Assembly (NCBI RefSeq): GCF_000017305.1
Contig: NC_009664.2
Span: forward strand, 30,001 to 62,000
DNA length: 32,000 bases
Direction: 5' to 3'
DNA from: Kineococcus radiotolerans SRS30216 = ATCC BAA-149
GTDB lineage: Bacteria; Actinomycetota; Actinomycetes; Actinomycetales; Kineococcaceae
A model generated the notes under the pieces. The model was not told the DNA's origin. It ran no database searches and saw only the letters and a list, made by a program, of their open reading frames with translations. The position numbers and the translations under genes are program-made. Shown here one piece after another: positions 5,649 to 21,346 of the stretch. Position 1 is the first letter of the stretch, and each line of letters begins with the position of its first letter.

Positions 5649-6065
5649 CCACGGCGTCGGGTGCTCCTCCGGGGCGCTTGACCAGACGATTCCCCTGACG
5701 ACGTCGACGTCGAGGGCGGCGTAGACGTCGAGGGCGCCCTCTTCGCCACGCCGCACCCGACGCCGATCTGCGCTGCGTGAGGCAGAGCGGCACCGCACCG
5801 GACGTCGACGCCAGTCCTCGACGCCAGTCCCCAATGGCCCGCCTTCGGCGCAGTCCGCCTCGGCTGGCGCTGCACCGTCAGCACCCGCAGCAGTCCCGGG
5901 GAGGTGGGCGAGCTCGTGGGTGTTTCCCAGCGGTGCCGAGCACGACGACCGGTGGGACGGCCTCGACTGGGAGGTTCACCCCACGACGACGCCGGGTGCT
6001 ACTGCGGGGGCTGCCGCGGCGGCGTGAGCAGCGAGTGCTGCAGTCAGGACCGGTGCGGATCCAAC

Positions 6066-12571: not shown

Positions 12572-12586
12572 CTCATGCCCTTTGCG

Positions 12587-13999
12587 TCACAGGGTCGGAA
12601 CCGCAGGCCGGGTGGCCTTCGTGGCCAGATCGCGCCGGTACACGGCGGCGGGGTGGTCCTTGCGGACCCGGCGCTGCCCCGGCCCGTACAGCTTCTCCCG
12701 CGCGGTGACCCCCTCGTCGTACTCGTCCCAGTACCGTCCTCGGCGCTGCAGCTCGGGCACGACCAGGTCGATGAAATCGACGAACGTGCCCGGGGTGGCG
12801 GCGTAGGCGAGGTTGAAGCCGTCGATGTCGGCGGCCTCCATCCAGTGCTCGAGCTCGTCGGCCACCGTCGCCGGCGATCCCACGAACACCGGCCCCATCG
12901 CGCCGATCCCCACGAAGTGGGCGACCTCACGCGGGGTCCACTCCCGGGAGGGGTCGGCTCCGGAGAAGATCTCCAGCGCGAAGCGGGCGGAGTCGGTCTC
13001 GACGTACTGCAGCGGCTGGTCGGGATCGAGGGCGGAGAGGTCGACGCCGGTGATGCCGGCGTAGAAGGCCAGCGCGCCTTCGTAGTCGGTCCAGGTCAGC
13101 AGCTCGGCGTACTTCGCCTGCGCCTCCTCATCGGTGGGGGCCACGACGGTGGTGATCTCGGTGAAGATCAGCAGGCTGCGCGGGTCGCGACCGGCCTGAG
13201 CGGCCTGGGCGCGGATGTCATCGACGTAGCCGCGGAGGACCTGCGCGGTGGGGGCGACGGTGAAGACGGCTTCGGCGTTGCGGGCGGCGAACGCTCGCCC
13301 GGTGCTGGAGGTACCGGCCTGCCAGATCACCGGGGTGCGCTGGGGGGACGGCTCCGCCAGGTGGATCCCGGGGACGGAGAAGTAGACGCCCTCGTGCTCG
13401 ATGGGGTGGACCTTGGCCGGGTCGGCGTACACCTTGGTGGCCCGGTCGGCCACGACGGCGTCCTCCTCCCAGGACCCTTCCCACAGCTTGTAGCAGACGT
13501 CGACGACTTCGGCGGCGAGCTCGTAGCGCTCGTCGTGGGACATCTGCCGATCCATGCCGAGGTTGCGGGCGGCGCCGTCGAGGTAGGAGGTGACGATGTT
13601 CCAGGCGATGCGCCCACCGGTGAGGTGGTCCAGGGAGCTGAAGCGCCGGGCCAGGGCGTAGGGCTGCTCGTAGGTCGCCGAGACGGTGATCCCGAACGAC
13701 AGCTTGCTGGTGACCGCGGGCATGGCGCTGACCTGCATGAGGGGGTCGTGCACGGGCACCTGCATGCCGGATCGGAGGGAGGCGTCGGCGGAGTCCTGGT
13801 AGGTGTCGTACACGCCGAGGACGTCGGCGATGAAGAGGCCGTCGAACTTGCCTCGTTCGAGCAGCTGCGCCAGCTCGGTCCAGTAGCTCAGGTCGTTGTA
13901 GCGGGTGGACTGGTCACTCGGGTGGGCCTACAAGCCCGGCGACTGGTGCATCACGCACGTCATGTCGAAGGCGTTGAGCCGGATGCGCGAAGGGGACAT
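12587..13999 (-). pseudogene. LLM-class flavin-dependent monooxygenase (NtaA/SnaA/DszA family) with an in-frame TAG
   Basis: ATG 13999 is preceded by GAGGAG. The protein reads MSPSRIRLNAFDMTCVMHQSPGL*AHPSDQS...GKFDGLFIADVLG, with TAG at 13928-13930. The intact paralog at 19865 has Trp at that position (HGQWRRPD). The track ORF 12587..13813 is the part after the stop. Confidence 0.8.
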
Positions 14000-14094
14000 C
14001 GGTTCTCCTCGTGATGAGCAGTTGCTGCTGCTGGCGCCGTCTCCCGGGACTCAGGCGTAGCGGCGAGCAGGGATCTCACGACCACAGCTGAGCG

Positions 14095-14124
14095 CGGTGG
14101 TGGCCGGTGGTGCCCGGTGGTGTC
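14095..14124. repeat. Tandem 10-bp repeat CGGTGGTGnC x3
   Basis: Read directly (cggtggtggc, cggtggtgcc, cggtggtgtc). It lies in the divergent control region between the LLM pseudogene and the riboswitch promoter. Confidence 0.85.
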
Positions 14125-14241: not shown

Positions 14242-14271
14242 TTGACACCGGGCGGGGAAAGCTCCTAGCTT
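14242..14271 (+). promoter_or_regulatory. Candidate sigma-70-type promoter: TTGACA, 18 nt, TAGCTT
   Basis: -35 TTGACA at 14242-14247 and -10 TAGCTT at 14266-14271. The predicted start falls about 7 nt downstream, at the first G of the riboswitch P1. Confidence 0.55.
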
Positions 14272-14278
14272 CTTCCTC

Positions 14279-14390
14279 GGTCATGAGTGACAGCTGTAGG
14301 CCCTGGCTGGCTGTCCGGCAACCCTCCTTCCGTGGCGGGGTGCCCCAGGTGACGACCCGGCCGGGCGACGTGCCCGGCAAGTGCGGAGCT
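14279..14390 (+). promoter_or_regulatory. SAM-IV riboswitch
   Basis: GGTCATGAGTGACAGC...GCTGTCCGGCAACCCTCCTTCCGTGGCGGGGTGCCCCAGGTGACGACC...CCGGGCGACGTGCCCGGCAAGTGCGG closely follows the SAM-IV sequence I recall (GGUCAUGAGUGCCAGC..GCUGGCCGGCAACCCUCC..GGGGUGCCCCGGGUGAUGACC..GGCAAGCGCGG). There is a compensatory change in the P2 stem (ACAGC/GCTGT versus CCAGC/GCUGG). Confidence 0.85.
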
Positions 14391-14402
14391 GAGGAGAAGC
14401 AC

Positions 14403-14519
14403 GTGATCCCCACGTCGGAGCGGGTCCTGCAGTCGGTGCTGCTCGTCGAGCGTCGCCACGTGGACCTGGTGCGCACCGGCAGCGCGGCCTGTCGCCCCGG
14501 ACGCGCCTGCCCCGTCTGA
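14403..14519 (+). CDS. Small ORF (38 aa) immediately after the riboswitch
   Basis: GAGGAG (14391-14396), a 6-nt spacer, then GTG 14403. It encodes VIPTSERVLQSVLLVERRHVDLVRTGSAACRPGRACPV. GC3 is about 35/38. The TGA stop overlaps the palindrome at 14518-14534. Confidence 0.45.
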   Translation: MIPTSERVLQSVLLVERRHVDLVRTGSAACRPGRACPV

Positions 14520-14534
14520 CGCGCCTGGCGCGTC
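14518..14534. other. 17-bp palindrome GACGCGCC-T-GGCGCGTC at the sORF stop
   Basis: Read directly. The direct repeat gacgcgcctg also occurs at 14500-14509 and 14518-14527. No U-tract follows. Confidence 0.5.
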
Positions 14535-14619
14535 CCACGACGCCGTCACCTCTCCACCGTTCTCAGCTGCATCCCTTCTCTCCCCCACCCGTTTCCGGAC
14601 CGGCAGGAGTTCCGCCCGC

Positions 14620-16254
14620 ATGCCCGCACGCCCCCGAAGAACCCTCGTCGCCGGGTTCGCCGCTCTGCTGCTGACCGGTTGCGCCGGTTCGGCGGCCGCG
14701 CCGCAGTCGGCGCCCGGAGCCCGCCCGGTCAGCGGCGGGACCATCGTCTACGGCCATCAGCAAGAACCCGCCTGCGTCTTCGGGGGATGGATCGAGCAGG
14801 CGTACCTGTCCACCCAGGTTCTGGACGCCCTCACCTCCCTCGACGCCGACCGCGAGGTGGTGCCCTGGCTGGCGACGTCCTGGCAGACCTCTCCCGACGG
14901 GCTGACCTGGACCTTCCACCTGAAGGACGGGGTGAAGTTCACCGACGGCACCGACCTGACCGCGGCGGTCGTGGCCTACAACATCGACCACTGGATGGGG
15001 GGAGGGAACTCGACGGCGAAGGTGTGGCTGGACGGGTACTACGACCACTCCACCGCCGTCGACGAGCACACGCTGCAGATCCACCTGGCCAAGCCCTACC
15101 CGCGGCTGGCCGACAACCTGGCCCAGGGCTACTCCGGTATCCAGTCCCAGCACGCGCTGGAGACCCGGACCGCGGAGCAGAATTGTGAGCAGCCCATCGG
15201 CTCGGGTGCCTTCGTGGTGGACCACTGGGACCGCGGGGAGCAGATCGTGCTCAAGCGCAACGAGCAGTACACCTCCCCGCCGGCCAACGCCAAGCACACC
15301 GGCCCGGCCCACGTCGAGCAGATCGACTGGAAGTTCATCGCCGACGCGACCACCCGGGTCGCCTCGCTGCGCTCCGGCGAGACCGACGCGATCTACGACG
15401 TCCCGGCCATCGACTACGCCGGCCTCGGCGCCGACGGCTACACCGAGCTGAAGTACGTCACCGGCGGCCGTCCCCAGCAGTTGGCGTTCAACACTCAGCA
15501 GGGCCCCTTCACCGACGAACGCGTCCGCAAAGCGTTCGCCTACAGCCTGGACCGCAAGGCCCTGGTCGAGACGATCGGGCAAGGCGTCATCCCCTACGAG
15601 GGCAACGGCGCGGTCTCCCAGAGCACCCCCGGCTACAGCCAAGCGGCCGCCGATGCGTACTCCCTGGACCTCACCCGAGCCAACCAGTTGCTGGACGAGG
15701 CCGGGTGGACCGGACGTGACACCGACGGCACCCGCACCAAGGACGGCGAACGGCTGAGCGTGGTCCTGCCCTACAACTCCGGCACCATCATCAACGCCGA
15801 CGGCGCCTCGATCCTGCAGGGCGTCCAGGAACAGGCCAAGGCGAGCGGGTTCGCCGTCGACCTGGTCACCGTCCCCCCCAGCGGGTTCTTCTCCGGCCTG
15901 TACACCAAGCCCGACGAGCGAGACATCGCCGCCGGGTACTGGACGGCCGTCACCGCCGGGATCCTGTGGATCAACTGGCGCCCGGTGAGTGAGGAGTGGC
16001 CCAACGGCAACAACGCCGCCTTCACCACCGACGCCTTCCTCGGTGACCTCATCGACCGGGCCAACCAGACCGCCGACGTCCAAGCCCAGAACGCCCTGTA
16101 CGCGCAGGCGCAGGACTACATCGCCGATCACGCCCTGTCCATCGGCCTCTACGACCGGCTGAGCACCCTGGCGGTGACGCCGTCGCTGAAGGACGTGTGG
16201 CAGGAAAACGCCCAGGGAGGACCGGTGTTCTACGATGCCCACTTCGTCCGCTGA
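14620..16254 (+). CDS. ABC transporter substrate-binding lipoprotein, family 5 (DppA/OppA/NikA type)
   Basis: Signal peptide with lipobox LLLTGC. 544 aa with family 5 SBP features (KFTDGTDLTA..., WKFIADATTRVASLRSGETD). Confidence 0.9.
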   Translation: MPARPRRTLVAGFAALLLTGCAGSAAAPQSAPGARPVSGGTIVYGHQQEPACVFGGWIEQAYLSTQVLDALTSLDADREVVPWLATSWQTSPDGLTWTFHLKDGVKFTDGTDLTAAVVAYNIDHWMGGGNSTAKVWLDGYYDHSTAVDEHTLQIHLAKPYPRLADNLAQGYSGIQSQHALETRTAEQNCEQPIGSGAFVVDHWDRGEQIVLKRNEQYTSPPANAKHTGPAHVEQIDWKFIADATTRVASLRSGETDAIYDVPAIDYAGLGADGYTELKYVTGGRPQQLAFNTQQGPFTDERVRKAFAYSLDRKALVETIGQGVIPYEGNGAVSQSTPGYSQAAADAYSLDLTRANQLLDEAGWTGRDTDGTRTKDGERLSVVLPYNSGTIINADGASILQGVQEQAKASGFAVDLVTVPPSGFFSGLYTKPDERDIAAGYWTAVTAGILWINWRPVSEEWPNGNNAAFTTDAFLGDLIDRANQTADVQAQNALYAQAQDYIADHALSIGLYDRLSTLAVTPSLKDVWQENAQGGPVFYDAHFVR

Positions 16255-17272
16255 CCCCGTGCTGCACCTCGAAGACGTCAGGTTCTCCGCCGCGCCGTCC
16301 GAGGCGCCAGCCCACCGGGCCAGGCGCTGGGCCGGCAACGTGGTGCGCCGGATCCTCGGCGCGCTGCTCGTGCTCTGGGGAGCAGCGAGCGTCGCCTTCC
16401 TCGCCCAGGTCGCCCTGCCCGGGGACCGCGCCACGATCATCTTCAACATCCGCGCAGGGCAGCCCATCGAGCGGACCCCTGAGGAACTGGCCACCATCAA
16501 CGCCCAGTACGGGTTCCAGCACCCGGTGCTCCGCCAGTACCTGGACTACCTGTCCGGCCTAGTGCGCGGAGACCTGGGCCACTCCTACCAGCAGTTCCGC
16601 CCCGTCACCGCGATCATCGGTGAGCAGCTGGCGCCCACCCTGGTCCTGACCTTCTCGGCCATCGTGCTGGCCTGGGTGTTCATGGTGTTCTGGGTGACCC
16701 TGACCGCCGGGCGCTCGCGGGGCACCTCCGGCTTCGGCGCCGCGCTGGACACCGCCGCCGCCGGGCTGCCGCACTACTGGCTGGGCATCGTCCTGCTGCT
16801 GGTCTTCGCCTTGACGTTGCATTGGTTCCCCGTCATCAGCGGCAACTCCCCCGCCGGACTGCTGCTGCCGGCCCTGACCCTGGCCATCCCCCTGGCCGGG
16901 TTCATGGGGCAGGCCACCCGCAGCGAGTTCGAGCGCTCCCTGGCCCAGCCGTTCGTCCTGACCGCCCGGATGCGGGGGATGAGCGATGCGGGGATCCGCC
17001 TGCGGCACGTGCTGCGCCACTCCGCGCTGCCGGCGGTGACGCTGTCGGGGTGGGCGCTGGGCGCCACCATCTCCGGCGCCGTCGTGGTGGAGACCGTCTT
17101 CACCCGCGCCGGCATCGGGCGGGTGCTGGTGACCGCGGTCAACAACCAGGACCTGCCCATCGTCACCGGCGTCGTCGTGCTCGTCGCGGCCCTCTACGTC
17201 GTCGCGAACCTCCTCGTCGACGTCCTGCACGCCCTCATCGACCCCCGCCTGGCGAAGGGAACCGACTCGTGA
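16235..17272 (+). CDS. ABC transporter permease (DppB/OppB type)
   Basis: Multi-TM protein with an EAA-like loop TARMRGMSDAGIRLRHVLRHSALP. The start is uncertain (ATG 16235 overlaps the SBP gene; in-frame GTG at 16259). Confidence 0.85.
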   Translation: MPTSSADPVLHLEDVRFSAAPSEAPAHRARRWAGNVVRRILGALLVLWGAASVAFLAQVALPGDRATIIFNIRAGQPIERTPEELATINAQYGFQHPVLRQYLDYLSGLVRGDLGHSYQQFRPVTAIIGEQLAPTLVLTFSAIVLAWVFMVFWVTLTAGRSRGTSGFGAALDTAAAGLPHYWLGIVLLLVFALTLHWFPVISGNSPAGLLLPALTLAIPLAGFMGQATRSEFERSLAQPFVLTARMRGMSDAGIRLRHVLRHSALPAVTLSGWALGATISGAVVVETVFTRAGIGRVLVTAVNNQDLPIVTGVVVLVAALYVVANLLVDVLHALIDPRLAKGTDS

Positions 17273-18132
17273 GCGCCCTGCTGACCGACCCCGGCCTCAG
17301 CACCTCCCGCCCGCGTCGGAGCGTGGGCACCCGTCCCTGGGCGGTCCACCTGGCCGCGGTGGTGGCGGTGTTCTTCCTGGTCGCGGTGATCGCCCCCGGT
17401 CTGCTGGACACCACCGACCCCCTCGCCCTGCACCTCTCCCAGGCGCTGCAGGCCCCCGGGCCCGGGCACTGGTTCGGCACCGACGAGGCCGGGCGGGACC
17501 TGTGGAGCCGGATCGTGCACGGCACCCGTCCCTCCCTGGCCATCGGGGTGGGAGCCAGCGCGGTGAGCCTGAGCCTGGCGATCGTGCTGGGCTCGCTGGC
17601 CGCCCTCGGCGGGAAGATCCTGGCCCCGGCCGTGGACCGCGTCGTGGAGGTCCTCTTCAGCTTCCCCAGCCTGCTGCTGGCGCTGCTGCTCGTGGCGCTG
17701 CTGGGCCCCTCCGCGCTCACCCAGGCCATCGCGGTGGGAGTCGGCACCGCCCCCGGCTACGCCCGGATGGTGCGCGGGCAGATCCTGTCCGCCAAGGGCT
17801 CGGCCTACGTCGAGGCGGCGTTGACCTTGGGGCACTCCCCCGCGCGGATCCTGCGCCGGCACGTCCTGCCCAACGCTGTGCGCCCGCTGGTGGCGATCAT
17901 GGCGCTGTCGATCGGGCAGTCCATCGTGTGGGCCTCCAGCCTGTCCTTCCTGGGCCTGGGCGTGGCCCCGCCCAGTTCGGAGTGGGGGGCCCTGCTGGAA
18001 GCCGGGCGCCCCTACGTCGCCCACGCCTGGTGGCTGACCGTCCTCCCGGGTCTGGTCATCGTCGCCCTGGCGCTGGCCGCGACGACGCTGGGCAAGCACC
18101 TGCAGTCCCTGCTGGAGAGGAGCGAGGCGTGA
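17269..18132 (+). CDS. ABC transporter permease (DppC/OppC type)
   Basis: GTGA start/stop overlap at 17269-17272. HWFGTDEAGRDLWSRIVHG and EAALTLGHSPARILRRHVLPN motifs. Confidence 0.9.
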   Translation: MSALLTDPGLSTSRPRRSVGTRPWAVHLAAVVAVFFLVAVIAPGLLDTTDPLALHLSQALQAPGPGHWFGTDEAGRDLWSRIVHGTRPSLAIGVGASAVSLSLAIVLGSLAALGGKILAPAVDRVVEVLFSFPSLLLALLLVALLGPSALTQAIAVGVGTAPGYARMVRGQILSAKGSAYVEAALTLGHSPARILRRHVLPNAVRPLVAIMALSIGQSIVWASSLSFLGLGVAPPSSEWGALLEAGRPYVAHAWWLTVLPGLVIVALALAATTLGKHLQSLLERSEA

Positions 18133-19868
18133 GCGCCACCCGAAGCCCGAGGATCGACCCGGCCCCGAGCCCCGTCCACGACGCCGGCCCGGACGCTACC
18201 GTCGGCACCGTCATCGGTACCGCCGTCAGTACCGCCGCAGGGCCCGTCCTGAGCGTGCGCGGTCTCGACGTTGGCTTCGCCCGCCGCGGAGGCACCCGGC
18301 ACGTCGTGAAGGACCTCACCTTCGACCTGGCCGGGGGTGAGTGCCTGGCCATCGTCGGGGAGTCCGGGTCGGGCAAGAGCGTCACCGCCCGCACCCTCGT
18401 CGGGCTCACCGGTGGGCAGGCCGTGGTGGCGGCCGAACGCCTCGACTTCGACGGTGCCGACGTGCGCGGGTTCTCCGCCCGCGACTGGCGGGCCACCCGC
18501 GGCCGGCGCATCGGCTTCGTCCTGCAGGACGCCCTGGTGTCCCTGGACCCGCTGCGGCCGGTGGGAGCGGAGATCGAGGAGACGCTGCGCCTACACGGCT
18601 GGACCTCCCGCAAACAGCGCCGGGCCAAAGCCGTGGAGCTGCTGGAGGCCGTCGGGGTCCCCTCCGCCCGCACCCGCGCCGGGCAACGGCCGGACGAGCT
18701 GTCCGGGGGGCTGCGCCAGCGCGCGCTGATCGCCTCGGCCATCGCGCTGGACCCGGAACTGGTCATCGCCGACGAACCCACGACGGCCCTGGACGTCACG
18801 GTGCAGGCGCAGGTCCTGGACCTGCTGGAGCAGCAGAAGCGGCGGGGGGTGGCGATCGTCCTGATCAGCCACGACCTGTCGGTGGTGGCGCGCCTGGCCG
18901 ACCGGGTGCTGGTCATGGCCGGAGGCGTCGTCGTCGAGAGCGGCCCCACCGCCGACGTCCTCAGCGATCCGCAGCACGAGTACACCAGGGCCCTCATCGC
19001 GGCCGTGCCCGGTGAGCACAGCCGCGGGGAGCGGCTCAGCCCCGCACCGGTCGCGGTGCTGCCGGCCCCGCGCCGCGAGCAGCGCAGCGGGGTGGTGCTG
19101 CAAGCGGAGGGCCTGGTCAAGCGGTACGCCACCAGGCAGGGCACTCACACCGCCGTGGACGGGGTCTCGTTCGCCCTGCACGCCGGACGCACCCTCGGCA
19201 TCGTCGGGGAGTCCGGGTCGGGCAAGTCCACCACCGCCCGCCTCGCCCTGGCCTTGACCCGCCCCGACGCCGGCACCGTCCACCTGCTGGGTCAGGCGTG
19301 GTCGGAGGTGCCGGAGAAGGCGCGCCGGGCCCGGCGCCGAGAGATCTCGGTGGTCCAGCAGGACCCGTTGAGCTCCTTCGACCCGCGCTGGACGGTGGAG
19401 CGGATCCTGCTCGACGCCCTGCCCGGACAGTTCCAGGGCGATCGTGGGGTGCGGGTGCGCGAGCTGCTGCAGCAGGTGGGCCTGACCGAGGAGGTCCTGC
19501 CCCGCTTCCCGCTCACCCTGTCCGGCGGGCAGCGCCAGCGCGTCTCCATCGCCCGGGCGCTGGCCCCCGAGCCTTCGATCATCGTGCTCGACGAAGCCGT
19601 CTCGGCCTTGGACGTCTCGGTGCAGGCGCAGGTCCTGGACCTGCTCAGCGACCTGCAGCGCGAGCTCGGGCTGGCCTACCTGTTCATCTCCCACGACCTG
19701 GGCGTCATCTACCACGTCAGCGACGACGTCCTGGTCATGAAGGACGGCGTCGTCGTGGAGCGCGGCACCGCCACCGACATCTTCGAGCGTCCCCAGCAGC
19801 CCTACACCCGTGAACTGGTCAGTGCCCTACCCCGCCTGGGGCTGGCCACGCAGGAGGAGACCCGATGA
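18129..19868 (+). CDS. ABC transporter ATP-binding protein, fused double ATPase (DppD/DppF type)
   Basis: Two Walker A motifs (GESGSGKS twice) and two signatures (LSGGLRQR, LSGGQRQR). GTGA overlap with the upstream permease. Confidence 0.9.
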   Translation: MSATRSPRIDPAPSPVHDAGPDATVGTVIGTAVSTAAGPVLSVRGLDVGFARRGGTRHVVKDLTFDLAGGECLAIVGESGSGKSVTARTLVGLTGGQAVVAAERLDFDGADVRGFSARDWRATRGRRIGFVLQDALVSLDPLRPVGAEIEETLRLHGWTSRKQRRAKAVELLEAVGVPSARTRAGQRPDELSGGLRQRALIASAIALDPELVIADEPTTALDVTVQAQVLDLLEQQKRRGVAIVLISHDLSVVARLADRVLVMAGGVVVESGPTADVLSDPQHEYTRALIAAVPGEHSRGERLSPAPVAVLPAPRREQRSGVVLQAEGLVKRYATRQGTHTAVDGVSFALHAGRTLGIVGESGSGKSTTARLALALTRPDAGTVHLLGQAWSEVPEKARRARRREISVVQQDPLSSFDPRWTVERILLDALPGQFQGDRGVRVRELLQQVGLTEEVLPRFPLTLSGGQRQRVSIARALAPEPSIIVLDEAVSALDVSVQAQVLDLLSDLQRELGLAYLFISHDLGVIYHVSDDVLVMKDGVVVERGTATDIFERPQQPYTRELVSALPRLGLATQEETR

Positions 19869-21346
19869 GCGCGAGCAGCCCCGACCCCACCCCGCAGCCC
19901 CTCTTGCACGCGGCGCCGGGCTCAGCACGGAGGCCGTTGCGCTTCAACGCCTTCGTCATGAACACCACCTCCCACATCCAGCACGGGCAGTGGCGCCGAC
20001 CGGACGCTCAGCAGACCCGCTTCAACGACGTCCGCACCTGGATCGAGCTGGCGAGGACCCTGGAGGCGGCGAAGTTCGACACGATGTTCTTCGCCGACGT
20101 CAGCGGCCTCTACGGCGACGCCGACGCCGACTTCGACGTCTACGTCCGCGAAGGTCTGCAGATCCCCTCCAACGACCCCACCGTCCTGCTCTCCGCCCTC
20201 GCGGTGAACACCGAGCACCTGGGGTTCGCGACCACGTCGAACGTTTTCCAGAACCACCCCTTCAACTTCGCCCGCCAGATCTCGACCCTGGATCACATCT
20301 CCGACGGGCGCATCGCCTGGAACGTCGTGACCGGCATGCAGGACAACGGCGCCCGCAACTACGGCATGGACCGGGTGACCGAGCACTCCGAGCGCTACCG
20401 CTGGGCGCAGGAGTACGTCGACGTCGTCTACAAGCTGTGGGAGGGCTCCTGGGACGAGGACGCCCTGCTGCAGGACAAGGAACGCGGCCTGCACGCCGAC
20501 CCCTCCAAGATCCACAAGATCCACCACCGGGGCGAGCGGTACCGGGTGGAGGGGCCGCACCTGTCCTCCCCCTCCCCGCAGCGGACCCCGCTGCTCTTCC
20601 AGGCCGGCTCGTCGCTGTCAGGGCGGCGCTTCGCCGCCCAGCACGCCGAGGCGGTGTTCCTCGTCTCCCCCTCCCCCGCCCTGGCCGCCCAGCAGATCGC
20701 CGAGACCCGGGCCCTGGCCACCGGCTTCGGCCGTGAGCCGGGCGACGTGACGTTCTACCAGGGCCTCAGCTTCGTCATCGGATCCACCGAGGAGGAAGCC
20801 CGCGCCAAGGCCGCGGAGTACGACGAGTACATCAGCGTCGACGGCTACCTGGCTCACTCCGCGGTCGTGGACCGCGCCGGGCGGGTCTACCCCCCCGACA
20901 CCCCGTTGAAGGACGTGCAGACCGACGGTGCGCGCGGCTTCGCGGAGTGGCTGTCCAAGCACATCACCGACCGTGAGCCCGTCGTAGCGGACCTGGCCCG
21001 CCAGCGCGCCACCAGCCAGCGCATCGTCGGCACCCCGGAGCAGATCGCCGACCGTCTCCAGGAGTGGCAGGCGGCCGGCGTCGACGGCATCAACGTCATC
21101 AACTGGGTCATCCCCGGTTCCTTCGAGGAGTTCGCCGATCACGTCCTGCCGGGGCTGCGCGCGCGCGGCCTGGCCCAGTCGGAGTACGCGGAGGGGCCGC
21201 TGCGCCAGAAGCTGTTCGGTTCCCCCCGCCTCAACGACAGGCACCCCGCGGCCGGCTACCGCGGCGCCTACGGCGAAGGTCGAGCGGTGCTGCCGGCGCC
21301 CACTACCGCCCCGGACCGCCTCACCGTCAGCTCCGGAACTCCGTGA
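19865..21346 (+). CDS. LLM-class flavin-dependent monooxygenase (NtaA/SnaA/DszA family), intact
   Basis: ATGA overlap with the ATPase gene. 493 aa. Paralogous along its length to the interrupted gene at 12587-13999 (YKLWEGSW, SPQRTP, GRIAWN shared). Confidence 0.9.
   Translation: MSASSPDPTPQPLLHAAPGSARRPLRFNAFVMNTTSHIQHGQWRRPDAQQTRFNDVRTWIELARTLEAAKFDTMFFADVSGLYGDADADFDVYVREGLQIPSNDPTVLLSALAVNTEHLGFATTSNVFQNHPFNFARQISTLDHISDGRIAWNVVTGMQDNGARNYGMDRVTEHSERYRWAQEYVDVVYKLWEGSWDEDALLQDKERGLHADPSKIHKIHHRGERYRVEGPHLSSPSPQRTPLLFQAGSSLSGRRFAAQHAEAVFLVSPSPALAAQQIAETRALATGFGREPGDVTFYQGLSFVIGSTEEEARAKAAEYDEYISVDGYLAHSAVVDRAGRVYPPDTPLKDVQTDGARGFAEWLSKHITDREPVVADLARQRATSQRIVGTPEQIADRLQEWQAAGVDGINVINWVIPGSFEEFADHVLPGLRARGLAQSEYAEGPLRQKLFGSPRLNDRHPAAGYRGAYGEGRAVLPAPTTAPDRLTVSSGTP

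Follow-up and report, generated by a model that had tools for sequence, protein, structure and literature searches.

We describe here the regulatory leader of a five-gene operon of Kineococcus radiotolerans SRS30216, contained in a 32,000 nt stretch of contig NC_009664.2 (positions 30,001 to 62,000; hereafter the window, whose own numbering is used throughout). The operon encodes a family-5 solute-binding protein (SBP), the two permeases and fused double ATPase of an ATP-binding cassette (ABC) importer, and a luciferase-like monooxygenase (LLM), and it is preceded by a riboswitch of the SAM-IV class (SAM, S-adenosylmethionine), a short upstream open reading frame (uORF) and a C-rich spacer. 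Our preferred reading, which we consider reasonably probable, is that this leader joins two sensors in series, SAM-IV and a cysteine-type leader peptide, such that expression of the operon would require low SAM together with low cysteine. The comparative pattern, drawn from aligned and listed sequences, is solid and well replicated, and the mechanism, which we infer, has close conceptual precedents. The elements of the leader are the following.

14242..14271 (+), putative promoter: −35 TTGACA at 14242–14247, 18-nt spacer, −10 TAGCTT at 14266–14271 (from sequence and alignment)
14279..14389 (+), SAM-IV riboswitch aptamer (RF00634, full-length)
14391..14405 (+), ribosome-binding site of the leader uORF: Shine–Dalgarno (SD) sequence GAGGAG at 14391–14396, 6-nt spacer, GTG at 14403–14405 (from sequence)
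14403..14519 (+), leader uORF of 38 codons, GTG 14403 to TGA 14519, encoding VIPTSERVLQSVLLVERRHVDLVRTGSAACRPGRACPV up to its stop (NF042934)
14436..14492 (+), conserved core of the leader peptide, VLLVERRHVDLVRTGSAAC, ending in the Cys codon TGT 14490–14492 (synonymous-only variation)
14499..14534 (+), lineage-specific extension of the uORF (from alignment columns, sequence and codon listing)
14519..14601 (+), C-rich, G-poor spacer separating the uORF stop from the SBP ribosome-binding site; candidate Rho loading (rut) site (from C/G composition)
14605..14622 (+), SBP ribosome-binding site: AGGAG at 14605–14609, ATG at 14620; five Kineococcus leaders share CAGGAGTYC and the ATG

An Rfam scan matched SAM-IV (RF00634) at 14279–14389 on the + strand with a score of 104.8 bits (E-value 1.6e-18; gathering score 38) over model positions 1–116 of 116, and this was the sole Rfam match in the whole 32-kb window; the original prediction, made from the letters of the DNA, had placed the element at 14279–14390 and was well founded on this point. 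It had also given the element its own promoter, and both hexamers are indeed present. The five-gene operon occurs in four further Kineococcus genomes (K. terrestris, K. sp. SYSU DK003, K. sp. T13 and K. rubinsiae), and in an alignment of the five leaders the −35 hexamer and a TAGnTT −10 element are invariant, with transcription predicted from the sequence to start at about 14278, the first base of the aptamer. A generic sigma-70 scan, which is uninformative for actinobacterial promoters, reported neither TTGACA/TAGCTT, since TAGCTT agrees with TATAAT at only three of six positions, nor any other promoter. Generic scans likewise predicted no consensus promoter or intrinsic terminator in the leader, and the only two terminator-like sites found were weak and lay within a permease gene. 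Orthologous aptamers score about 99–104.5 bits in the four other Kineococcus species and Frankia QA3 (99.8–104.5 bits in Kineococcus alone), and promoter, aptamer, uORF and operon are conserved together in these five genomes, with flanking genes that differ between species.

The SD sequence and start codon at the 3′ end of the aptamer belong to the uORF, and control of the operon by the riboswitch is therefore probably indirect, with two inputs. The GAGGAG begins 2 nt past the end of the aptamer model, and the GTG lies 13 nt after the aptamer, preceded by a 124-nt 5′ leader that contains it. Measured from the aptamer core, the uORF start is at 47 nt, compared with 49–70 nt (median 53) for the starts in 13 SAM-IV/metX loci; because the geometry of a 5′ cis-acting SAM-IV element with an adjacent 3′ SD and start codon is that of the MetX loci, the riboswitch appears positioned to control the start of the uORF and not that of the transporter. 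The original prediction had the operon under SAM control, which holds in so far as the riboswitch is real, but the SD and start that it adjoins serve the uORF and not the SBP gene. In the direct form of that model SAM-IV controls the SBP and its operon, the short ORF having arisen by chance; aptamer and operon would lie on one transcript, with no predicted promoter or terminator between them, and spurious ORFs abound in GC-rich DNA. We nevertheless regard it as highly improbable, as 230 nt separate the aptamer from the SBP start, a distance far outside the range seen in directly controlled genes, and the ORF both passes a curated leader-peptide cutoff and is conserved at the codon level across genera.

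The uORF product scores 30.2 bits against a cutoff of 27 for the NCBIfam family NF042934, ‘putative leader peptide’ (cis_reg_atten). A small gene of 20–50 aa was called just 5′ of the SBP gene in each of the four other Kineococcus genomes, and their peptides also pass this cutoff (29.6–38.4 bits), as do two homologues at locus L083. The general shape is that of the family, a short ORF that ends near a Cys codon 5′ of sulfur genes on the same strand, the tail of eight codons in the window being at the long end. Similarity to the model of the Cys-rich leader Ms4527A (NF042936) is below the cutoff (28.4 bits, cutoff 45), and the peptide is not of the polycysteine leaderless type, its Cys residues 30 and 36 being non-adjacent and its ORF having an SD. 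Across the five Kineococcus leaders the N-terminus of the peptide varies freely in length and sequence, and the core ARRHVDLxRTxSAxC is held in all, its residues varying synonymously only (CGT/CGC, GTG/GTC, CTG/CTC and GCG/GCC, and in the wider family also GAC/GAT and AGC/AGT). A hairpin within the uORF core (consensus CUGCUG-CGCAC-CAGCAG) was considered and rejected, with no compensatory changes in the window or K. terrestris. Since changes in the core are only synonymous and the candidate hairpin shows no compensation, the codon pattern argues that the core is under selection as a translated peptide and not as an RNA helix. The stop codon lies exactly two codons past the Cys in four of the five leaders. 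In the window, GGA 14499–14501 stands where the four orthologues have TGA or TAG, and an 18-nt tandem duplication (14499–14516 and 14517–14534, 15 of 18 positions identical) adds six codons and brings in a second Cys codon, TGC 14508–14510.

The codon used for the motif-terminal Cys is also constrained. Of 18 family members (from Kineococcus, Micromonospora, Streptomyces, Geodermatophilus, Trujillonella, Frankia and one metagenome-assembled genome, MAG), 17 have TGT here, compared with 14 % TGT among 640 Cys codons in flanking genes of these loci (naive binomial P ~6e-14; P 1e-6 with one member per lineage), and other Cys codons inside the same peptides are mostly TGC. A fixed, rare, wobble-decoded UGU after a conserved nascent chain is what would be expected of a pause site tuned to the availability of tRNA-Cys.

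To place these elements in context, two sets of loci were compiled. A core-pattern scan with one genome per species gave at least 120 SAM-IV loci, 110 of them with a callable first gene, and a metagenome scan with the back-translated peptide core gave at least 120 leader loci, with 126 matches listed; the counts below refer to the loci listed. The first gene behind SAM-IV encodes a SufS-like class-V aminotransferase at 63 loci, a MetY-like protein at 18, MetX at 13 and other products at about 17, the last including LLMs, ABC binding proteins or permeases, sulfite reductase and similar proteins; NtaA/DmoA LLMs also sit behind SAM-IV in Arthrobacter, Kocuria and Geodermatophilus. A position ahead of genes outside methionine biosynthesis, which had seemed unusual at first sight, is thus that of a minority, but it is recurrent and no oddity. 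The leader peptide is present at 11 of the 19 SAM-IV loci that head sulfur-acquisition or other non-Met genes and at none of 93 Met-type loci (Fisher P = 1.4e-10). Besides the window, the leader-bearing SAM-IV loci head genes for a sulfite reductase of NirA/SirA type and a CysN-like GTPase, for a sulfate-binding protein and a permease, for amino-acid ABC systems of family 3, for a permease and for an LLM, and the Frankia QA3 locus heads an orthologue of the window SBP.

The reverse association is much sparser. Short ORFs that read LLVxR[RL]H[VI]DLxRVxSAxC, with a stop mostly one to seven codons later, make up 122 of the 126 leader matches, and a SAM-IV core lies upstream in only 3 of the 112 with enough upstream sequence; the pairing thus involves about 9 % of the SAM-IV aptamers and about 3 % of the leaders. 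Five leaders near sampled SAM-IV loci had no riboswitch upstream in full Rfam scans. The gene behind the leader, at 109 loci, encodes sulfite reductase (about 51), phosphoadenosine phosphosulfate (PAPS) reductase (7), an LLM (5), an ABC permease (5), adenosine phosphosulfate (APS) kinase (4), a PALP protein of cysteine synthase type (3), flavin mononucleotide (FMN) reductase (3), cysteine dioxygenase (3), an SsuA-like NMT1 protein (3), and TauD, a sulfatase, a sulfate SBP and a MetQ-like protein (1 each). Judged by these neighbours, the leader is an abundant free-standing cis element of a sulfur-assimilation and scavenging regulon, and because about 97 % of the leaders lack a riboswitch and yet precede sulfur genes, it must carry a signal of its own. 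This bears on the alternative that control is by SAM only, with the translated uORF merely shielding the leader RNA from Rho and its Cys codon and peptide having no sensing role here. The Mbox-uORF leader of Mycobacterium tuberculosis has been described in such terms (PMC12810186), and the window uORF has lost its ancestral stop and spacing, so that a Cys-sensing part might be decaying. The strong, position-specific conservation of the peptide core and its rare TGT, in all five Kineococcus loci among others, argues against this alternative, as does the prevalence of the leader without a riboswitch, and we hold it to be distinctly improbable.

The third element of the leader is the spacer. In the 83 nt at 14519–14601 the C/G ratio exceeds 3 in a 78-nt window, which puts it at the 99.9th percentile for the + strand; within the 32 kb a single further + strand region is as high. 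In the five Kineococcus leaders the spacer ranges from 47 to about 130 nt and is variable in sequence, with C always at 0.49–0.61 and G at 0.14–0.22, and the first 80 nt behind 120 listed standalone leaders average 34 C versus 23 G. The accepted Rho loading site is C-rich, G-poor, unstructured and untranslated RNA, and the leader offers an untranslated tract of about 80 nt of this composition 5′ of the SBP gene, with no stable fold predicted, as a Rho-dependent attenuator would require. A conserved terminator/antiterminator or a strong SD-sequestering hairpin was dropped as a candidate, as fold energies are no better than those of shuffled sequences. The unmasking of the SBP SD by a stalled ribosome was also set aside: a simulated footprint at the UGU gave no consistent change of SD accessibility in the five Kineococcus leaders (without and with the footprint, 0.45 and 0.44, 0.49 and 0.43, 0.40 and 0.31, 0.24 and 0.27, and 0.40 and 0.40). 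Coupling by termination and reinitiation was rejected, the uORF stop being 47–130 nt from the SBP start. Rho is favoured because SD accessibility is unchanged and there is no fold signal, its positive support being the composition of the spacer.

These data bear directly on a second way in which both sensors could act, namely by translational coupling, where a fold of the leader would hide the SBP ribosome-binding site, a Cys-stalled ribosome would open it, and loss of transcript would be secondary polarity. The experimentally studied Cys leader Ms5788A acts through translation and not by direct transcription termination (10.1101/834739), CUCC-type anti-SD motifs abound in the spacer, and CAGGAGTYC, the SBP SD, is conserved. 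The simulated footprint, however, leaves the accessibility of that SD unraised, there is no fold signal over shuffles, and a spacer of such varied length has no alignable structure; we consider translational coupling rather unlikely. The spacer also has to be considered as the site of a separate start of transcription, as the original prediction had recognized in naming a promoter between 14520 and 14620 as what would set the operon free of the riboswitch. No consensus promoter and no TANNNT −10 element were found at 14520–14619 by scan and by reading of the sequence, the latter because the TA dinucleotide is absent there. An alternative in which the operon has its own promoter past the uORF, or in which the small ORF encodes a trans-acting protein, with riboswitch and leader functionally separate, is hardly credible. 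A 100-nt spacer could hide a non-consensus actinobacterial promoter, and conserved small proteins with independent roles exist, rv1805A for instance having an Mbox-independent homologue (PMC12810186). The spacer is, however, unconserved in sequence and length, the entire assembly from promoter to operon travels together in five genomes with differing flanks, and the peptide has an unconstrained N-terminus and a position always 5′ of sulfur genes.

We therefore return to the reading with two sensors in series, which may be set out as follows. Transcription from the conserved promoter would start at the SAM-IV aptamer, and the aptamer when bound to SAM would abut and occlude the SD and GTG of the uORF. 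At high SAM the uORF would go untranslated and the spacer would be naked, and Rho, loading on the C-rich RNA from the uORF stop onward, would terminate transcription before the transporter genes. At low SAM with cysteine replete, the uORF would be translated, the ribosome would be released at the stop and the spacer would again be exposed, leaving the operon mostly off. Only at low SAM with charged tRNA-Cys scarce would the ribosome pause at the rare UGU that ends RRHVDLxRxxSAxC, near the end of the uORF, hinder Rho and let RNA polymerase enter the five-gene operon. The Dpp-type ABC system would then import a probably sulfur-bearing substrate, which the NtaA/DmoA-type flavin monooxygenase would oxidize. 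That an untranslated uORF should mean ‘off’ is suggested because start-codon and nonsense mutants of mycobacterial Cys leaders are more attenuated (10.1101/834739), and a methionine/SAM veto on a cysteine-starvation response is sensible because methionine is itself a sulfur source.

Several observations weigh against this reading. SAM binding, translation of the uORF, pausing and Rho dependence are all inferred, and one or two Cys codons would make a weak sensor by comparison with the experimentally validated poly-Cys tracts. Predicted folds of the leader (14279–14640) and of its 3′ part are no better than those of shuffled sequences (z = +1.87 and +0.33), with no structure-based expression platform visible, and the C-richness of the spacer could serve otherwise, for example in CUCC anti-SD pairing. 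The window uORF is itself atypical, having lost the ancestral stop and ending eight codons after the conserved Cys as opposed to one to four in most of its 122 relatives; because of these eight codons a ribosome paused at the UGU would remain about 25 nt short of the C-rich spacer, whereas one paused at the second Cys would adjoin it. The extension is either adaptive or a sign of decay. The uORF of K. rubinsiae starts about 37 nt beyond the aptamer, and simple steric occlusion is less obvious there. Finally, both sets of loci consist of the matches listed and are not random draws.

The genes downstream are all on the + strand and are arranged as follows.

14620..16254 (+), family-5 solute-binding lipoprotein, SBP_bac_5 (Dpp/Opp/Nik type; signal peptide, LLTGC lipobox); PF00496, 267 bits
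16235..17272 (+), ABC permease 1; PF00528, PF19300
17269..18132 (+), ABC permease 2, with a GTGA overlap with permease 1; PF00528
18129..19868 (+), fused double ABC ATPase of GsiA/YejF-like architecture, GTGA overlap; PF00005 twice, oligo_HPY (PF08352)
19865..21346 (+), NtaA/DmoA-family FMN-dependent LLM, ATGA overlap; TIGR03860

Pfam and NCBIfam searches confirmed the gene content originally proposed in every part, and the overlaps taken to mark translational coupling (GTGA at 17269 and 18129, ATGA at 19865) are all present. The set of domains, PF00496, two of PF00528, two of PF00005 and PF08352, is that of a Dpp/Opp/Nik-type importer (PepT family), and the LLM matches TIGR03860 with 489.9 bits (cutoff 279.7) over profile positions 1–422 of 422. 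The SBP falls below the equivalog cutoffs of TIGR04028 SBP_KPN_01854 (206 vs 468.5 bits), NikA (183 vs 393) and GsiB (132 vs 594), and its solved relatives are only distant ones, binders of nickel, opines and the GsiB type; the ATPase aligns over its full length with GsiA and YejF and yet is under their cutoffs. The original caution that sequence does not reveal the substrate still holds. The proposed role in sulfur acquisition is strongly backed by genomic context: by its regulatory setting the substrate is a sulfur source, and it is probably sulfur-bearing. The nearest solved relatives of the LLM are HcbA1 (464 bits), LadA (386) and DmoA (372), with YtnJ at 246, and an analogy with the Bacillus ytmI and yxeK operons, which the original prediction had drawn, is accordingly a loose one. 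The operon encodes no flavin reductase partner for an LLM of two-component type. Among first genes at the listed standalone-leader loci, FMN_red and Flavin_Reduct genes are frequent.

The SBP shares 87 % identity with its K. terrestris counterpart and 67–87 % with orthologues in Kineococcus and Microbacteriaceae, and the LLM is 72–92 % identical to those of the orthologous operons; because the two are so tightly co-conserved, they are likely to act on the same compound. SAM-IV accompanies this operon in the four Kineococcus relatives and Frankia QA3 but not in Subtercola, Leifsonia, Cryobacterium and Agromyces (loci L125–L128; SBP 67–75 % and LLM 72–76 % identical), where neither SAM-IV nor the leader peptide was found. 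Since these four orthologous operons lack both, it seems that a functional unit which already existed either acquired the regulatory module or lost it. Additional LLM genes extend the operon in Agromyces (L128) and Leifsonia (L126), and Agromyces adds a gene of the Acyl-CoA_dh_2 family, which we take to include organosulfur oxygenases of DszC/SfnB type; these extra genes fit a sulfur-scavenging role. In L126 and L127 there is a tRNA gene in the gap upstream of the orthologous operon. In K. sp. SYSU DK003 a second SAM-IV aptamer (L122, 13028–13138, + strand; 111.7 bits) immediately follows the LLM gene of the operon and heads genes for a MetQ-like lipoprotein (Lipoprotein_9) and a MetN-like ATPase with a NIL domain, such that two transport operons led by SAM-IV lie back to back.

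On the other side of the SAM-IV promoter, and divergent from it, is a second NtaA/DszA-type LLM gene (12587–13999, − strand) with its own GAGGAG SD and an ATG at 13999–13997. It is 54–55 % identical to the LLMs directly behind SAM-IV in Arthrobacter and Kocuria and is interrupted by an in-frame TAG at 13930–13928, at the position of the conserved Trp of HQSPGLW in homologues; it is either a pseudogene or the product of a sequencing error. An antisense ORF at 12575–14014 (+), to which no family model matched, was discarded, the minus-strand LLM being the preferred call; gene calls based on the G+C content of third codon positions (GC3) are heuristic. Three exact copies of CGGTGGTG with a 10-bp period (14095–14122, + strand; TRF score 49) lie in the divergent intergenic region between the interrupted LLM gene and the promoter. 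The triplet may be a protein operator, and the octamer is common in this genome (25 copies vs 3.6 expected).

The listed SAM-IV loci show some further features of leader organization. Divergent pairs of SAM-IV and leader share one intergenic region at L083 (5459–5571, − strand, and 5711–5823, + strand) and also at L191 on both strands; in L083 one arm precedes a sulfite reductase gene with that of a CysN-like GTPase and the other a sulfate-binding protein gene with that of a permease. The product most common behind SAM-IV, at 63 of the 110 loci, is a SufS/CsdA-like class-V pyridoxal phosphate enzyme below all equivalog cutoffs, and its gene is no classical Met gene. In 32 Streptomyces SAM-IV leaders (L003, L006, L017, L019, L021, L027, L029, L031, L032, L041, L043, L047, L048, L055, L075, L077, L079, L081, L088, L091, L094, L096–L098, L105, L106, L108, L109, L111, L113, L118 and L119) an SD and a six-codon micro-ORF, GTG AGC AAG CGA ATG CGN TAG (VSKRMR and stop), come just after the aptamer, 50–100 nt after the SAM-IV core. 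All 32 have the rare CGA, the Met codon and the TAG stop, whereas the final Arg codon varies synonymously (CGA 19, CGT 7, CGC 6). Next come a pyrimidine-rich, G-poor tract and the SufS-like gene, a layout like that of the window leader except for its Met codon. Cys-rich uORFs outside the VDLLR family follow other SAM-IV elements, in L066 (Actinotalea caeni), L008 (Cellulosimicrobium funkei), L014, L099, L115 and L078; those encoding MAQAQVPGFGRSTRTTTGTCCMCMCLCTMA and ...VACCR precede LLM genes, and those encoding VRRPIMCSCC, VNCRMCC, ...VCLC and MHRRCRR precede MetY-type genes. At L073, on a contig labelled as an uncultured Gammaproteobacteria MAG, a SAM-IV core is followed by a MetY-type gene with a GC3 of 0.84, and the contig is probably a mis-binned actinobacterial one. 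We put forward only tentatively the broader possibility that SAM-IV elements of Actinomycetota often gate ‘sensor-codon’ uORFs and not operons, these being the Cys-type leader, the poly-Cys uORFs and the Streptomyces V-S-K-R(CGA)-M-R-TAG micro-ORF, each followed by a pyrimidine-rich spacer of Rho type; such leaders may be two-input gates for SAM and aminoacyl-tRNA status, with nascent peptide and rare codon together serving as a sensor of tRNA-Cys charging.

It is already known that riboswitches can act through a uORF and Rho, as with Mbox and B12 elements in M. tuberculosis, and that mycobacteria have Cys-codon leaders. What appear new are SAM-IV as a gate, its serial fusion to a free-standing leader of a sulfur regulon, and a conserved peptide with an invariant rare UGU; the literature searched held nothing relevant on SAM-IV with a uORF or leader peptide, on this fusion or on the UGU peptide, and no published description of the NF042934 family. 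Riboswitches are usually pictured as one ligand acting on one gene, and this locus suggests that a SAM riboswitch was added onto an independent and widespread leader of Cys type. If the reading is correct, a sulfur-scavenging operon is expressed only when the methionine/SAM and cysteine branches both report shortage, SAM-IV joins the few riboswitches known to work by way of a uORF and Rho, and it becomes clear how a ‘translational’ riboswitch can govern a five-gene operon. It would also give a function to an abundant leader family, mostly found before sulfite reductase, and point to a codon-level design rule in which a conserved nascent chain is followed by an invariant, rare UGU, and it would flag the SBP–LLM pair, conserved from Kineococcus to Microbacteriaceae, as a sulfur-regulated system of uptake and oxidation.

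Parts of this arrangement can be recognized in well-studied systems. The ytmI and yxe operons of Bacillus subtilis, which are induced by sulfur limitation, also place an ABC importer beside a flavin monooxygenase of the NtaA/DszA superfamily, although they use family-3 amino-acid ABC systems and protein regulators, and the window LLM is nearer to HcbA1, LadA and DmoA. The GsiABCD and Yej systems of Escherichia coli share the layout of fused double ATPase and family-5 SBP, but the SBP and ATPase of the window are far below the GsiB and GsiA cutoffs. The mgtA leader of Salmonella combines a Mg2+-sensing RNA with a proline-codon uORF, mgtL, and thus one leader reads a small-molecule or ion signal by RNA structure and an amino-acid signal by translation of a uORF; mgtL, however, lies inside the sensing RNA and alters its fold, whereas here the modules are serial and each is also found alone elsewhere. 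In the tnaC leader of E. coli, the TnaC peptide senses free tryptophan in the exit tunnel and stalls the ribosome at the stop codon, with attenuation by rut and Rho. In having a conserved leader peptide, a ribosome that stalls close to the uORF end and a site for Rho loading beside the stop codon, this leader recalls what we propose for the window, but the signal proposed here is the charging of tRNA-Cys at a sense codon, and there is no homology.

The closest parallels are actinobacterial. The polycysteine leaderless short ORFs of mycobacteria (Ms5788A, Ms4527A and others) are cysteine-responsive attenuators (bioRxiv 10.1101/834739) that end in Cys codons before sulfur or cysteine genes, Ms4527A having the weak similarity to the window peptide given above. 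They are leaderless with at least two consecutive Cys codons, whereas the window leader has an SD and follows a riboswitch, and its peptide has just one conserved Cys, the second Cys being non-adjacent, together with a long, conserved non-Cys motif and a fixed rare codon. B12 riboswitches interact with uORFs in M. tuberculosis (PMC11260477), and that of ppe2 is, like the element proposed here, a translational OFF switch with a uORF that modulates the downstream gene; its ligand differs, uORFs of the ppe2 type have no amino-acid-sensing codon, and the ppe2 uORF acts by termination and reinitiation over a short distance, which is unlikely here because the uORF stop is 47–130 nt from the next start. 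In the pe20 leader of M. tuberculosis, an Mbox controls the uORF rv1805A through a translational platform and Rho-dependent termination (PMC12810186). There, as in our reading of the K. radiotolerans leader, an actinobacterial riboswitch regulates the start of a small conserved uORF whose family also occurs outside the riboswitch context, and a Rho step, proposed for the window, relays the signal; the pe20 aptamer responds to Mg2+ in place of SAM, and rv1805A is not codon-sensing, whereas in Kineococcus the Cys-type leader would add a second input.

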